Source: Fidelibacterota bacterium (GTDB taxonomy: Bacteria > Fidelibacterota > Marinisomatia > Marinisomatales > TCS56). Taken from it: DNA of 37,860 bases. The stretch is taken from positions 1 through 37,860 of the forward strand of contig JBDRBK010000162.1 of assembly GCA_043822705.1 (NCBI GenBank). Direction: 5' to 3'. Each line of letters starts with the position of its first letter. Position 1 is the stretch's first letter. Positions 629-5,468 of the stretch are shown here, one piece after another. The notes below the pieces were generated by a model. It saw nothing but the letters and a program-made list of their open reading frames with translations. It did not search any database and was not told where the DNA came from. The position numbers and the translations under genes were made by a program.

Positions 629-698
629 TGTCACCCTGAGCCGGTCGAAGGGTGATAATTCAATTTACCGGTCATGCTTCGACGGGCTCAGCATAACA
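629..698. repeat. Inverted doublet of REP-like palindromic units
   Basis: TGTCACCCTGAGCCGGTCGAAGGGTGA (629-655) and an inverted variant GTCATGCTTCGACGGGCTCAGCATAACA (671-698; reverse complement TGTTATGCTGAGCCCGTCGAAGCATGAC). Confidence 0.8.
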
Positions 699-741: not shown

Positions 742-800
742 ATAGTTGGGGATTATGCGCAGGGAAACCATTGACGGCGACTCAAACCGTTTGACCGGTT
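742..800. repeat. Degenerate REP arm immediately downstream of tnpA
   Basis: ATAG...AGGG (742-764), a 20-nt spacer, then AACCGTTTGACCGGTT (785-800). Same layout as the arm at 4990-5052. Ends 2 nt from the tnpA stop. Confidence 0.55.
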
Positions 801-802
801 GC

Positions 803-1231
803 TCATTTTAATCCATATTTCTCCAAAAACAGATCGACCTCCTCCTGGTAGCTGCGTTTCCGGTGATGTTCGATCTGCTGGCGGATATATTCCTCCACCG
901 TGTCAACCTGCGATTCACTAACCGAAAAGGCAGCATACCCGGTCTGCCAGGCGAAATTCGATTCAATCAGATCCTGACGGTTAATCCAATTGGCTGTTTC
1001 AGCTTTCACCAGTTTGATCAATTCCGCCAGCGATTTTTCCGGCGTCAACTGGAATAAGACATGTACATGATCGGCGGTACCGTTGATAATCATTACCGGG
1101 CTATTCCGTTTTTCGAAATTTTCCACGATCCGCCGATGGATATTTTCACTGTATTCTGTTTCAATCAGGGGTTGCCGGTCCTTGGTGCCGAATATGATAT
1201 GAATCCAGATTCTGGATAATGAATGCGACAT
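803..1231 (-). mobile_element. tnpA: IS200/IS605-family HUH (Y1) transposase TnpA, possibly REP-associated
   Basis: 142 aa; N-terminal WIHIIFGTKDR, HUH motif DHVHVL, FAWQTGYAAFSVS, and catalytic Tyr in VEEYIRQQIEHH. No tnpB adjacent. Confidence 0.92.
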
Positions 1232-1330: not shown

Positions 1331-1831
1331 ATGATCATTCGCGAAGAAACGCCTGCCGATATTGATGCGATAACTGCGGTCACGATCGCGGCCTTCAGAA
1401 CCCTCCCGATCAGCAATAACACCGAGCATTTTATCATCCATGCCCTGCGGACGGCTGGGGTCCTGACGCTCTCAATGGTGGCCGAACGGGACGATATAGT
1501 CGTCGGCCATATCGCCTTTTCGCCGGTTACCATATCGGATGGTACGAGAAACTGGTACGGCCTCGGGCCGGTGGCCGTATTGCCGGAATTACATAAACAG
1601 GGTATCGGAACGGCCCAGATCAACGAAGGTCTGGCGCGGCTGCAGGCGCTGGGCGGCCACGGCTGCCAGCTGGTGGGCGATCCCAATTATTACCGGCGCT
1701 TTGGTTTCAATAATTACCCGCAACTGGTGCATGAGGGCATCCCGCCGGAGGTTTTCATGGGCATGCCGTTTACCGATTCGATCCCGGTGGGGACCGTTAA
1801 TTTTCACGAGGCCTTTTTGGCGACAGAATAA
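1331..1831 (+). CDS. GNAT family N-acetyltransferase (YhbS-like)
   Basis: MIIREETPADIDAI, VGHIAFSPV, GLGPVAVLPELHKQGIG (acetyl-CoA motif A), LVGDPNYYRRFGF. Confidence 0.92.
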   Translation: MIIREETPADIDAITAVTIAAFRTLPISNNTEHFIIHALRTAGVLTLSMVAERDDIVVGHIAFSPVTISDGTRNWYGLGPVAVLPELHKQGIGTAQINEGLARLQALGGHGCQLVGDPNYYRRFGFNNYPQLVHEGIPPEVFMGMPFTDSIPVGTVNFHEAFLATE

Positions 1832-1858: not shown

Positions 1859-1911
1859 AAACCGTTAATACGGTTTCGCCTTTATCTTTGCACCTGAAAC
1901 CCGCGACTAAA
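1859..1911. repeat. REP arm with truncated inner hairpin (left junction of cargo)
   Basis: Palindrome AAACCGTTAATACGGTTT (1859-1876), a ~22-nt spacer, then ACCCGCGACTAAA (1899-1911). The latter is the left half of the hairpin seen complete at 4922-4946. Confidence 0.7.
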
Positions 1912-1943
1912 ATTGAATGACGGTGTCAGTCAGGTGCCGGGTA

Positions 1944-1975
1944 ACCTTCCAGGTCTACTTTGCGACCTGGAAGGT
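1944..1975. repeat. Palindromic element with perfect 12-bp arms
   Basis: ACCTTCCAGGTC-N8-GACCTGGAAGGT. Confidence 0.8.
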
Positions 1976-1996
1976 CGCTCAGTTGGGTTGGAATTT

Positions 1997-2024
1997 GTAG
2001 GGACAAGACCTGTCTTGTCCCTAC
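1997..2024. repeat. GTAG-type REP-like palindrome, copy 1
   Basis: GTAGGGACAAGAC-CT-GTCTTGTCCCTAC; related copy at 36272-36299. Confidence 0.85.
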
Positions 2025-2179
2025 CCCGCCATGCATAAATACCTTGATTTAATTACACCAGGCGCCCTAAACTTATGTCGCCGAACCGGATACGGGAATC
2101 CTCGCCTGCTGATTTTTATTGTCTATCGTCCCTGGATGAAATACTAACCTAAAAATTTTAACAAATACGAGTAAGTACT

Positions 2180-2953
2180 ATGGTTCTATATGCAATAGCA
2201 TTTGATTTTGATTGTCCATTTTCCTTTAAAAAGGTAAAGCTTCATTTTGGAGGTTATGAGTTTGTTTTTCATTATGGAGGTAATCAAAATGTAGATGTTA
2301 TTGAAACAATTCTAAAAGATAATAATGAAACCGAGCAGTTTGCACAAACTGCTATTGATTTTTGCCAAAGAATTGTAAAAGCAAATGAAACTTGCAGTTT
2401 TAGATATGTTATCGAATTTATAATTGGAGGAATAAAAACACCAATTGATTTAATAGATAAAGAACCTGCAATTCGTATTAAAAGAAGATCCAATAATCTT
2501 ATGGCAGATGTAAATGAAATTGGTGAATTTTTATCGGAAGAACAGAAAATTGTCACATCATTGATTAACGATGCTCAAAATACAAAAAATCCTTTTTTCA
2601 AATTTCTTTGTTATTGGAAAATATTAGAGATACCAGTTGACTCAAAATATGGGAACGCAAGGAAATGGATTAACAATATCTTAAAAGGAGATCAAGCTGA
2701 TTTTAAATTTAATAATAATATATTAGATATGCTCGAAAAGAAGATTGATATTGGACAATATTTTCAAGAAAACTATAGAAATGCTATTGCCCATATTACA
2801 AGACCACCCTTCTTATCAACACATAATTATTCTCATTTTAAAAAGGTTTCCCTTGCCTGTACGGATATAAAGATTTTTGTTGATTATTACCTTAGACACG
2901 TTGTTGGTTGGTATAATCCTCCAATCAAAAACAAGATAGTAAAAATAATCTAA
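2180..2953 (+). CDS. Hypothetical protein with C-terminal HEPN-like RxxxxH motif (MauJ/ApeA-like)
   Basis: 257 aa, visibly very AT-rich relative to neighbours. Helical C-terminal half with FKFLCYWKILE and YRNAIAH (R-x4-H). The ORF is secure; the family is inferred from motifs. Confidence 0.65.
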   Translation: MVLYAIAFDFDCPFSFKKVKLHFGGYEFVFHYGGNQNVDVIETILKDNNETEQFAQTAIDFCQRIVKANETCSFRYVIEFIIGGIKTPIDLIDKEPAIRIKRRSNNLMADVNEIGEFLSEEQKIVTSLINDAQNTKNPFFKFLCYWKILEIPVDSKYGNARKWINNILKGDQADFKFNNNILDMLEKKIDIGQYFQENYRNAIAHITRPPFLSTHNYSHFKKVSLACTDIKIFVDYYLRHVVGWYNPPIKNKIVKII

Positions 2954-3045
2954 TTATTAATACAAATTCTCTCCTCTTGATTAGGAATACATATGGATAG
3001 TAATTGACATTTAATGGCAATATTAAATGCTAACCGTTTATTGGT

Positions 3046-3186
3046 CTAAAAATCACCCCAGGTTGTTTCTCGGGCCAACCACAAATGGAGCATCACCCGC
3101 TTGACCGCCATTTCCGCCCGGGACAGGTCCAAATCGGGGGCGTGCTCATTGATGCGCCGGCGGGCGCGCTCCAAAGCCCACCGCAT
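3046..3186 (-). pseudogene. Diverged duplicate of the atpC 3' end (epsilon C-terminal helices), 46-codon frame
   Basis: Translates MRWALERARRRINEHAPDLDLSRAEMAVKRVMLHLWLARETTWGDF*, aligning without gaps to AtpC RQALERAKNRIGEHGPDLDLARAEMSIRRALIRLRVV. Confidence 0.88.
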
Positions 3187-3258
3187 TATTTAATACTACC
3201 ATTTCTTTTACCGCTAAAACAACCATACTGCCAATCCACAACAAAATAAACTAAATAC

Positions 3259-3287
3259 TGTCGCGAATATATACTATATTTGCGACA
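3259..3287. promoter_or_regulatory. Inverted-repeat operator upstream of abiEi
   Basis: TGTCGCGAATATA-TAC-TATATTTGCGACA (12/13 arm match), 16 nt before the ATG. AbiE antitoxins are known to autorepress via promoter inverted repeats. Confidence 0.7.
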
Positions 3288-3303
3288 CTAACGGAGACTT
3301 TTC

Positions 3304-3918
3304 ATGCCTGTAAACATAGAGATACAAATACTTACTAAATTCAGAAAGGCCGGGCGGGGTCGGCTCTTTTTCATCGAAAATTTTCTATCGTTTGGTAATT
3401 CAAAAGCCGTAAGTAAAACATTGGAACGTTTGATACAAAAGGGTGAACTTGTGCGTGTCGCGACAGGAATTTATGTCCGGCCCAAAAAAGATGAGGCCAT
3501 AGGTTACCTTACACCTGGAATTGAAGAAATCGCCAAAGCCATTGCCAAAAGAGACCGGGCCAGGATCGTTCCTACCGGCATCTATGCTCTGAATAAACTG
3601 GGTCTTTCTACCCAGGTGCCATTGAATATTATATATCTAACGGATGGGGCCGCCCGTAAAATCAAAGTTGGAAAACATACCATTGTTTTAAAAAAAACAA
3701 CCCCTAAAAATTTAGCTGCCATCGGTGATATAAGCCGATTGGCTATCCAGGCTTTACGCACCTTAGGCAAAGAAAATGTCACATCTGAAGAAATAAAAAA
3801 AATTCAGCAATTACTAAAAAAAGAAAAAATCACGCGCCTACAACATGATATCCGCTTAGCCCCGGCATGGATTCGCGATATAATGAAACCGGTATTGGAA
3901 AACAGAGCCGATGAATAA
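3304..3918 (+). CDS. AbiEi-like antitoxin (DUF6088-type, N-terminal winged HTH)
   Basis: AVSKTLERLIQKGELVRVATGIYVRP, ALNKLGLSTQVP, YLTDGAARKI. GGAG RBS; overlaps the next gene by 8 nt. Confidence 0.85.
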   Translation: MPVNIEIQILTKFRKAGRGRLFFIENFLSFGNSKAVSKTLERLIQKGELVRVATGIYVRPKKDEAIGYLTPGIEEIAKAIAKRDRARIVPTGIYALNKLGLSTQVPLNIIYLTDGAARKIKVGKHTIVLKKTTPKNLAAIGDISRLAIQALRTLGKENVTSEEIKKIQQLLKKEKITRLQHDIRLAPAWIRDIMKPVLENRADE

Positions 3919-4933
3919 ACACTCAATCCAAGAATGGCTTAAACTGTCAGACAGAACAAAAATATATATTTTCACCGAAACCAGTACAAAAACCGGTCTG
4001 CCTGCTATTGCTATTGAAAAAGACTGGTGGGTAGTCAAAACTCTGGAAGTTATTTTTAATACGGAAATTGCGGACCACACAGTTTTTAAGGGCGGAACTT
4101 CTTTAAGCAAAGCATGGGGGTTGATTGAGAGATTTTCGGAAGACATTGATTTAGCTCTGGACAGGAAATTTCTTGGCTTCGATCAAGAAATGACCACATC
4201 TCAGGTAAAAAAACTACGGAAGGATTCCTTCCGATTTATTTCAGAAAAATATTATCCTGCACTGGAACAGGCATTCCATGAGTATGGCTTACGCGATGTG
4301 AAGCTGGAATTAGCAGATACTACTGCAAATGACCAGGATCCATTAATAATCATAGTGCATTACACCGGACTTATTGAAAAATCGGAATACATTCAATCAC
4401 GTATTTTAATCGAAATTGGAAGTCGCTCTTTGAGGGAACCGTTTACAGTGATGCACTTTCGGACATTAGTAGGTGAGCATTTCCCGGGTAAACCATTTAC
4501 GGATAATTTGATTAGTATTCCAACCGTAAATCCGGAAAGGACATTTCTTGAAAAAATATTCTTATTGCACGAAGAGTTTCAAAAACCGAATAATAAGATT
4601 AAAGTGAATCGCTTAAGTCGGCATTTATACGATGTGGAAAAAATGATGGATACAAAATATGCCAGAAAAGCATTATCTGGAAAAACTTTATATCAACATA
4701 TAGTGGAGCATAGAAGAACAATTACGCCAATTAGAGGGATAAATTACGAAAATCACAATTCTGATAAAATAAATCCTATTCCACCTGAAAGTATATGGAA
4801 TGACTGGAAGCAGGATTACAATAAAATGCAACGAAACATGATATATGGTGATTCGCTATCATTTAACGAACTGATTGATCGGATTCGACAACTGAAAGAA
4901 AAAATCAATAATTTACCCCTGACCCACGACTAA
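3911..4933 (+). CDS. Nucleotidyltransferase AbiEii/AbiGii family toxin (type IV TA / abortive infection)
   Basis: IEKDWWV, VFKGGTSLSK, IERFSEDIDL, PERTFLEKIFLLHE, SRHLYDV motifs. Confidence 0.93.
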   Translation: MNKHSIQEWLKLSDRTKIYIFTETSTKTGLPAIAIEKDWWVVKTLEVIFNTEIADHTVFKGGTSLSKAWGLIERFSEDIDLALDRKFLGFDQEMTTSQVKKLRKDSFRFISEKYYPALEQAFHEYGLRDVKLELADTTANDQDPLIIIVHYTGLIEKSEYIQSRILIEIGSRSLREPFTVMHFRTLVGEHFPGKPFTDNLISIPTVNPERTFLEKIFLLHEEFQKPNNKIKVNRLSRHLYDVEKMMDTKYARKALSGKTLYQHIVEHRRTITPIRGINYENHNSDKINPIPPESIWNDWKQDYNKMQRNMIYGDSLSFNELIDRIRQLKEKINNLPLTHD

Positions 4934-5052
4934 AGTCGTGTGCTATTAATGATCCATTATAATTATTTCAAATCTGTATTTATTTGTAAATAGCCCAAGG
5001 TTTTAACCGTAGGGAAAAGAATACAAAAAATGAATTAACCGGTTTTACGGTT
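4922..5052. repeat. REP composite between the convergent abiEii and atpC
   Basis: ACCCACGACTAAAGTCGTGTGCTAT (4922-4946), an AT-rich centre, inverted ATAGCCCAAGGTTTTAACCGTAGGG (4990-5014), a 22-nt spacer, then AACCGGTTTTACGGTT (5037-5052). Confidence 0.8.
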
Positions 5053-5060
5053 CAGAAATA

Positions 5061-5467
5061 TCAGGATAGGATACGGTTGACGACCCGCAGACGGATCAGG
5101 GCGCGCCTGATTGACATTTCCGCCCGCGCCAAATCCAGATCGGGACCATGTTCACCGATCCGGTTCTTCGCCCGTTCCAGGGCCTGGCGGGCGCGATCGG
5201 GATCAATCTCGGCGGCGTGCTCGGCCGTTTCCACCAGCAGGCGCACCGTGTCTCCGGTGATCTCGGCAAAGCCGCCCCGCGTCGCCAGGTACACCGTTTC
5301 CTTATCGGAAACGACTTTGATCTCACCTTCCGCCAGGGCGAACATGGCGTTGGTATGGCGCGCCAGGATACCGAACTGGCCGTCGCTGCCGGGGCAGCGC
5401 AGGTAGCTGACTTCACCCTTATCGATGACCCTGGTGGGCGTTACGATTTCCAGCCGGAAAGTGCTCA

Positions 5468-5468
<1 letters not shown>
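5061..5468 (-). CDS. atpC: ATP synthase F1 epsilon subunit
   Basis: FRLEIVTP, PGSDGQFGILARH, GGFAEI; last gene of the operon. Confidence 0.97.

Follow-up and report, generated by a model that had tools for sequence, protein, structure and literature searches.

Gene order at the locus and the tnpA gene

The window analysed here is a stretch of 37,860 nucleotides from a Fidelibacterota bacterium (contig C162, JBDRBK010000162.1, of the 3.3-Mb bin GCA_043822705.1; bin completeness 93%, contamination 6%). In it, foreign genes interrupt a hairpin repeat beside a domesticated transposase gene, tnpA, and they seem to have piled up there in at least two recombination steps. On the plus strand the gene order is aspS, tnpA, a GNAT acetyltransferase gene, a gene for a MauJ-family protein, a fragment of atpC, abiEi, abiEii, the intact atpC and the remaining atp operon. 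The GC content is 53% for the bin, 62–64% for atpC and the atpC fragment, 28% for the MauJ gene, 41% for abiEi and 36% for abiEii. A preliminary description of this DNA had listed a gene with a HEPN-type motif, the atpC fragment and abiEi-abiEii as the contents of a ~3-kb block, and had proposed that TnpA moves such blocks as integrase-free cassettes. We found these genes in the block, but it also contains host repetitive extragenic palindromic (REP) sequences and the start of a second REP doublet.

The tnpA gene (803..1231, minus strand) encodes a stand-alone Y1 HUH transposase of 142 amino acids (PF01797, E 1.6e-25) that scores over the cut-off of NF033573 and under that of NF047646 (24.8 bits against 80). 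Its motifs DHVH, WQ and YxxxQxxHH match TnpA-Y1 subclass 1.2, an assignment made by comparing motifs by eye with Table 1 of PMC6006769. We found a tnpA orthologue directly after atpC in 6 of 8 relatives from the same family, at 48–71% identity, with aspS next in four of these and the contig end in two. The two relatives without tnpA run atpC straight to aspS. All eight belong to other genera, and the site is not comparable base by base. Both DHVH and YIRQQIEHH, that is the HUH motif and the single catalytic tyrosine, are kept in 5/5 orthologues, and the differences between tnpA and the five number 33–36, 19–25 and 69–76 at codon positions 1, 2 and 3, an excess at the third position. Judged from synteny and codon positions, tnpA appears to have been inherited vertically, without change of site, and to be under purifying selection.

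Other Y1 genes in the bin are 72% (from a second population) and 38% identical to tnpA, and the best plasmid match is 38%. Having no near-identical copies and occupying a fixed site in the family, tnpA does not look like an IS200/IS605 insertion sequence (IS). Nor does it look like a Class 2 REP-associated tyrosine transposase (RAYT, or TnpA-REP), as it has YxxxQxxHH and not YxxxNP and its repeat has no GTAG foot.

The family-D repeat and what breaks it

The repeat linked to tnpA, here called family D, has as its unit a 16-bp palindrome, about 22 nt and a 20-bp hairpin; two units face to face form a doublet, or REPIN, with hairpins D1 and D2. No GTAG foot was present on the repeat. Using a strict pattern we detected family D in 7/9 family genomes, with 5–25 matches per genome in six relatives, and never when the pattern was reversed. 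It was missing from exactly the two family genomes that lack tnpA at the locus. The composite element proposed earlier is a real repeat family tied to this TnpA clade. Family D was also found in 35/401 phylum genomes and in records titled Ignavibacteria and Saprospiraceae. Six stretches in viral contigs comprised two whole or nearly whole hairpins, one decayed and three chance-like. Copies of family D in the window's bin are few (about four sites) and decayed. In one relative, G001, the whole REPIN including its spacers occurs at C113:11634-11788 (L092) and C147:619-773 (L038) with 158/160 bases identical; unless these contigs are alleles, this points to a recent event that copied the entire doublet at once. 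DNA folding of 4915–5058 gave z -2.1 (11/200 shuffles), a weak signal that was not used.

The tnpA orthologues carry the palindrome and hairpin on both flanks, and Y1 genes at 35–43% identity, found by protein search, do not; the phylum loci in this comparison were picked for holding the repeat, and only the atpC-anchored loci are unbiased. The preliminary description held that the window's own tnpA carries the same type of arm. We found only a decayed family-D palindrome after the tnpA stop (785..800), the remainder of the flanking REPIN being lost, and at 1290–1330 only half a palindrome where relatives have a second one, immediately upstream of tnpA. A REP doublet between aspS and tnpA (629..691) belongs to another family, C, which has many matching sites in the bin. 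In its behaviour the locus is a REPtron, that is a domesticated Y1 tnpA between atpC and aspS with REPIN doublets flanking it. Inverted doublets that flank the gene and are also dispersed in the genome are present in relatives and mostly decayed in the window's bin.

We examined 162 distinct units at 87 loci of relatives for breaks in the D hairpin. We found that 154 were intact, four had 20–24-nt inserts in the loop and one held a MITE (miniature transposable element with inverted repeats) with a 4-bp duplication; of the rest two looked like noise or decay and one lay at a contig edge. No gene cargo with a duplicated arm was found among these 162 units, a set from which 28 repeat matches were unlisted, some listed ones were left out and the loop inserts L113, L192 and L195 were dropped by a strict filter. 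We also searched every GTDB species for D1 units whose loop is followed by a wrong base, and obtained 31 stretches, mostly loop variants. The true breaks among them were mini-palindromes or elements with terminal inverted repeats (TIRs), and no genes accompanied by a duplicated arm were found there. When the other arm type was put to the same test, 201 + 201 genomes yielded one small insert, one single-base deletion and no gene cargo. Both of these scans give broken units only, without a tally of intact ones, and at the loop breaks L131, L142 and L145 the contig ends within 200 bp.

Insertions recur at the loop of the D hairpin, which is a hot spot, though one used by other parasites. The only alternative cargoes identifiable at the loop were mini-palindromes or TIR elements. 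At least three kinds of 15–24-nt mini-elements occupy the D loop in different genomes (L036:2533, L084:4933, L095:5625, L091:6814, L113:6801, L192:3525, L195:2813, L133, L135 and L270). TIR MITEs or IS remnants lie in the loop at L202:5211-5554, L131, L142, L138 and L145; the MITE at L202 has a 4-bp duplication and further hairpins inside it. Two candidates for larger cargo were rejected. G010:C46 resembled a REPIN carrying 760 bp of inserted DNA, but proved to be tnpA with a REPIN on either side. L138 resembled a second split arm, but the partner at +649 comes with a palindrome of its own, and a TIR element makes up the insert.

The interrupted REPIN and the origin of the block

In the window the D doublet is found in two pieces. 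The tnpA-side REPIN end (1860..1911, plus strand) consists of a palindrome (1860–1875), a 24-nt spacer and the left arm and loop of hairpin D1; the right arm is missing. The current REPIN (4922..5052, plus strand) has a full hairpin D1 (4923–4942) without a palindrome, an AT-rich centre, D2 (4994–5013), a 23-nt spacer and a palindrome (5037–5052), which sits after the stop of the intact atpC (5061..5468, minus strand; ATP synthase epsilon, PF02823 and PF00401), the final gene of the atp operon. The preliminary description stated that deleting the block rebuilds a symmetric element, and proposed looking in relatives for the empty allele. We found an intact doublet between atpC and tnpA in 5 of the 8 family relatives (5/6 of those with tnpA there), and the G001 doublet has the same arm order as the rebuilt element. 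Among metagenome loci, L152 has the doublet with tnpA and L151 the doublet without it. The GNAT, MauJ and abiE genes are missing at this locus in all eight relatives.

The break lies at the hairpin loop as described, the left 13-mer (1899–1911) ending exactly after it. The direct repeat said to bound the block was correctly placed and differs from the right 13-mer (4922–4934) at one base (12/13). However, an identity of 12 or 13 of 13 occurs in 390/990 pairs among 45 distinct D1 units. Because unrelated arm pairs match equally well, the 13-bp repeat is weak evidence, 12/13 being the normal likeness of this arm type. CCTG was reported before both copies; it directly precedes the right one, but two extra A stand between it and the left one, and a 4-mer match of this kind arises in 60/1980 unrelated spacer pairs. 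The preliminary description would have failed if 1899–1911 were an independent, decayed repeat. This is largely the case, as these bases may represent an older REPIN's far end.

On its left the block begins with 120 bp of host REPs, from family B (1941..1979), whose cognate Y1 gene is on contig C106, and family A (1997..2024); B + A pairs recur elsewhere in the bin. The MauJ-family gene follows (2180..2953, plus strand; PF17419, E 1e-13; GC 28%). Its RxxxxH, a HEPN-type motif, is invariant in 8/8 aligned proteins, but PADLOC gave no match, so that its role in defence is putative. Among 301 phylum genomes only the window's own has the MauJ gene, with 0 confirmed loci in viral contigs, and the 7 homologues are all without context.

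Next is the atpC relic (3046..3189, minus strand; GC ~64%). It corresponds to the final ~45 codons of another atpC allele, which has diverged but belongs to the same family. It shares 21/36 residues with the intact atpC and 17–20/36 with relatives. Its differences at the three codon positions are 15, 8 and 17, against 6–10, 4–8 and 14–23 between intact genes. The relic matches only this family (7/401 genomes, which apart from the relic itself hold ordinary family atpC at 49–58%), and no such relic was present in 40 other genomes. The third-position divergence is like that between genera, there are extra first- and second-position changes and the GC content is host-like, all of which suggests a diverged orthologue that then decayed. 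The relic is followed by a decayed second REPIN start (3010..3055, minus strand) with the old atpC stop codon, a degenerate palindrome and a 22-nt spacer, the hairpin being lost. When this piece was aligned to seven post-atpC junctions, its score was reached by 0–18/1000 shuffles and 0–7/1000 AT-rich control pieces. Because the relic is followed by its own decayed REPIN start, the block is two-layered. The window thus holds two units of an atpC end plus a REPIN start and one far end, and the left half-hairpin can pair with either start.

The right part of the block is the abiE pair. An inverted repeat (3259..3287), presumably the autoregulatory operator of abiE, marks where DNA homology to other abiE loci begins. 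The antitoxin gene abiEi (3304..3918, plus strand; DUF6088, E 5e-77; PADLOC AbiEi, E 2e-72) overlaps the nucleotidyltransferase toxin gene abiEii (3911..4933, plus strand; PF08843; PADLOC AbiEii, E 5e-101). By these matches the two form an intact AbiE type IV toxin-antitoxin, or putative abortive infection, pair. abiEii reads on for three codons into the hairpin arm and takes its stop from there. At the modal length of AbiEii homologues (337 aa, 41/119) the stop would fall at 4922–4924, flush with the arm. DNA likeness to the two closest phylum loci (73% and 70% protein identity) is confined to 3259–4915. An abiE gene is present in 7/400 other genomes; at eight further abiE loci of the phylum nothing resembles the family-D repeat and the neighbours are different, and we take the gene after abiEii in L157 and L158 to be a type I restriction subunit. 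Of 62 AT-rich open reading frames (ORFs) in the bin, abiEii is the only one with a whole D hairpin no more than 400 bp away. Outside the block, the GNAT gene (1331..1831, plus strand), missing here in 8/8 relatives, is a further insertion at the site and separates tnpA from the REPIN. Each of the three added gene blocks points to a family-D end. A separate AT-rich ORF of 545 aa in the bin lies near a lone family-D palindrome (C122:1767-3776), and the allele contig C140 ends before it.

We lean, with a little more than even confidence, towards a stepwise build-up in which the REPtron is a hot spot of accretion, filled by recombination with DNA from a relative's atpC end. The atpC-side REPIN would have become an accretion site in this lineage, and the 3 kb would have been built in at least two steps, the order of which is likewise conjectural. 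One layer, the B and A REPs with the MauJ gene, would have replaced the inside of a REPIN. A second step would have been recombination with DNA of a related lineage, anchored on the end of the atp operon, with homology at one joint and a short or illegitimate joint at the other. The outcome would be two atpC ends in tandem with abiE between them, and the 13-bp "direct repeat" would be two separate D1 arms, each cut back, and not a target duplication. Neutrality of the site, the position of the hairpins at the genes' 3' ends and an addictive or protective effect of abiE may explain why the genes are retained. TnpA would spread REPINs, and the cargo would need no TnpA. Donors are at hand, because the bin shows co-occurring related populations: dozens of contig pairs are 85–96% identical, and a second aspS-tnpA locus (C176:1-4446, L238) differs from the first, with aspS 91% identical in amino acids over the shared part and tnpA 72%.

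Several observations weigh against this stepwise build-up. We found no donor and no intermediate allele when the relic was compared with 401 genomes, MauJ with 301 genomes and atpC with metagenomes; the last scan gave five loci, of which two are family-level and none is conspecific. Few hairpins lack their palindrome (6/151), and a loop-broken end without a nearby partner is rarer still. Both oddities together, complementary in form, are what one insertion would produce. Decay is about as advanced in the left end as in the current REPIN and further advanced in the relic's palindrome, which speaks for pairing the left end with the current REPIN. The CCTG that both have, a 3% event by chance, hints at common descent.

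A single insertion by a route other than TnpA would account for these complementary ends. A pre-assembled 3-kb piece would have entered D1 and duplicated the arm and loop, by a short-homology crossover or by a tyrosine or DDE enzyme that acted in trans or has disappeared since, with the atpC relic as a passenger. The rebuilt allele has the arm order of G001, and the loop is a proven target of TIR elements (the L202 MITE with its 4-bp duplication, and L138 with TIRs). ISs are known to target REPs at fixed points (PMC1525189), and the bin has enzymes able to act on hairpins: an IS1182-type element (C94:10989-12600, L239) lies between 18-bp direct repeats that are a duplicated whole hairpin, inside a tandem array of repeats of ~170 bp each. 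However, we found no TIRs at the block ends, either among the 25 longest inverted pairs listed or in comparison with the bin; the ends match no IS end in the bin, and the block has no enzyme gene. The incoming circle would itself require a half-hairpin, and the inner relic still demands an earlier event at atpC. We regard a single insertion as possible but rather unlikely.

The preliminary description had stated that no integrase or DDE transposase is present. In hidden Markov model (HMM) searches of the whole bin we found no tyrosine recombinase (PF00589), IS110 or IS1182 transposase on the window contig, but the bin holds three tyrosine recombinases, two IS110 and one IS1182-type element, along with four more Y1 matches. 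An integrase island at the 3' end of a gene does not describe the locus, as PF00589 is missing from the contig and the relic's edge is not identical to atpC. Elsewhere in the bin, C30:29900-34800 has a tRNA-linked tyrosine integrase and AT-rich genes and is an ordinary integrated element, unrelated to the finding here.

The cassette mechanism proposed in the preliminary description would have the HUH TnpA nick single-stranded REPIN DNA and join gene-bearing pieces in, with no integrase. The catalytic motifs of TnpA are intact and conserved, and abiEii and the relic's spacer each end flush with a hairpin foot. E. coli TnpA-REP cleaves and recombines bacterial interspersed mosaic elements (BIMEs) in vitro, and capture of neighbouring genes has been proposed (PMC3333891). 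However, IS200/IS605 enzymes give no direct repeats and cut away from the hairpin (PMC3333891), and TnpA-REP cuts 5' or 3' of the REP (PMC8266576). By analogy, for subclass 1.2, a loop break with arm duplication would fit neither mode of cutting. The window is also a single case. No second gene cargo with a duplicated arm was found in the 162 units, the GTDB scan or the 402 genomes, the repeat is scarce and decayed in the bin, and no other cargo there is bounded by these hairpins, largely the outcome that the preliminary description had named as refuting it. A TnpA cassette thus appears very unlikely.

Other accessory genes in the bin are bracketed by REPs, but these belong to other REP families. 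In C61:5508-6426 (L231) a 918-bp insert, compared with C62 (L232), places a DUF6364-PIN toxin-antitoxin pair between two family-B REPs. The two alleles are 91–94% identical, the empty allele C62 has no B REP at all, and the two B REPs are the second most alike of 78 pairs. We consider this the best candidate for REP-bracketed gene movement. A second REPtron at C106:8462-10035 (L004) has B REPs that bracket an AT-rich DUF2971 gene and a Y1 gene; the DUF2971 stop lies inside a REP, and both ORFs overlap a REP at one end. A HipA module (HTH, Couple_hipA, HipA_C) lies between family-A REPs at C123:6213-8590 (L234), downstream of an IS21 helper gene. At C146:2098-7480 (L233) an ArsR-led cluster, an SBF-family transporter and an AT-rich HTH gene are found between B REPs 5.3 kb apart. 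The bracketed cases are single and have no matched control, and REPs and accessory genes may simply share permissive intergenic sites. These cases keep the bolder reading in play, but we think it unlikely that in this lineage domesticated HUH transposases use REPs as capture ends for small toxin-antitoxin or defence genes (abiE with MauJ, DUF2971, DUF6364-PIN and HipA).

The mixed state of the bin, with its 85–96% contig pairs, second aspS-tnpA locus and 6% contamination, is also what an assembly chimera would need, the two atpC ends coming from two related populations and being joined by the assembler. No contig bridges 1911/1912 or 4921/4922 among the contigs listed. However, the relic is truncated and has decay-type changes, and a 267-bp contig of run X1 covers 2971–3237, that is the relic and both flanks, without a difference, though X1 may be the source sample. 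As a general matter, 13 bp is too short to mislead an assembler. We judge a chimera to be the remotest of these explanations. No circular-junction joint was found among the low-depth run contigs listed (three runs, shares 0.10, 0.05 and 0.00).

Comparison with known systems

A subclass listed in 2018 without a REP here has a defined two-part REPIN, which makes it a substrate for studying the domestication of IS200-like enzymes. Several unrelated parasites gather in the D loop, and accessory genes in the flanks of REPtrons. If TnpA did capture genes at REPs, this would be an integrase-free route of gene acquisition and a host benefit that explains why RAYT-like genes persist, and the bolder reading would bear on the question of how RAYTs serve their host; our evidence does not demonstrate it. 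REPtrons, REP-targeted insertion and toxin-antitoxin genes at REPtron sites are already known (PMC1525189, PMC4923244, PMC3184786, PMC3733652, PMC3390384, PMC2884548). In a literature search that did not extend to supplements, we found no description of REP-bounded defence cassettes or of a two-part REPIN for a subclass 1.2 TnpA.

As in the E. coli TnpA-REP/BIME REPtron (PMC3333891, PMC8266576, bioRxiv 10.1101/2021.07.10.451892), the Y1 gene is single-copy, vertically kept and at a fixed site, and inverted repeat doublets flank it and are also scattered in the genome. In 24 E. coli strains the REPtron site is replaced by the hicAB toxin-antitoxin genes (PMC3333891). Unlike a RAYT-REPIN pair, the present enzyme scores as IS200-like (NF033573) and has YxxxQxxHH and not YxxxNP, and its repeat has no GTAG and keeps palindrome and hairpin ~22 nt apart. 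It resembles subclass 1.2 (Quentin et al. 2018, PMC6006769) in DH[IV]H, WQ, YxxxQxxHH, a length of ~145 aa, low copy number and the lack of tnpB. However, Table 1 of that paper gives no REP for subclass 1.2 and places it in Cyanobacteria and Bacteroidetes, whereas here there is a clear cognate REPIN in the Fidelibacterota (Marinimicrobia). IS200 Group 3 has been tied to abundant 16-mers (Bertels et al. 2017, PMC5581495), and the two-part REPIN may be the same thing.

ISs that target REPs (IS1397, ISPsy8, ISPpu9/10 and ISRm22; PMC1525189) break the palindrome at a fixed point, as here. IS1272 of the IS1182 family (PMC4923244) likewise targets hairpins, and such TIR elements sit in the D loops of other genomes. 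In the cited cases these ISs carry terminal repeats or a transposase and duplicate 0–6 bp, whereas the block in the window lacks such ends and has no enzyme. MITE-flanked mobilisation units (IMU; PMC3184786) also hold accessory genes between small repeats with the enzyme elsewhere. These units have two whole identical ends, and integrons have attC and IntI; here there is one half and one whole hairpin and no recurring array.

The stop codon inside the site recalls integron cassettes. Some genomic islands integrate at the 3' end of a gene and leave a relic, and homology-facilitated illegitimate recombination exists. Like such islands, the locus has foreign genes lying between a conserved gene's 3' end and a decaying duplicate of that end; unlike them, it has no integrase and no identical core at the 5' edge of the relic.

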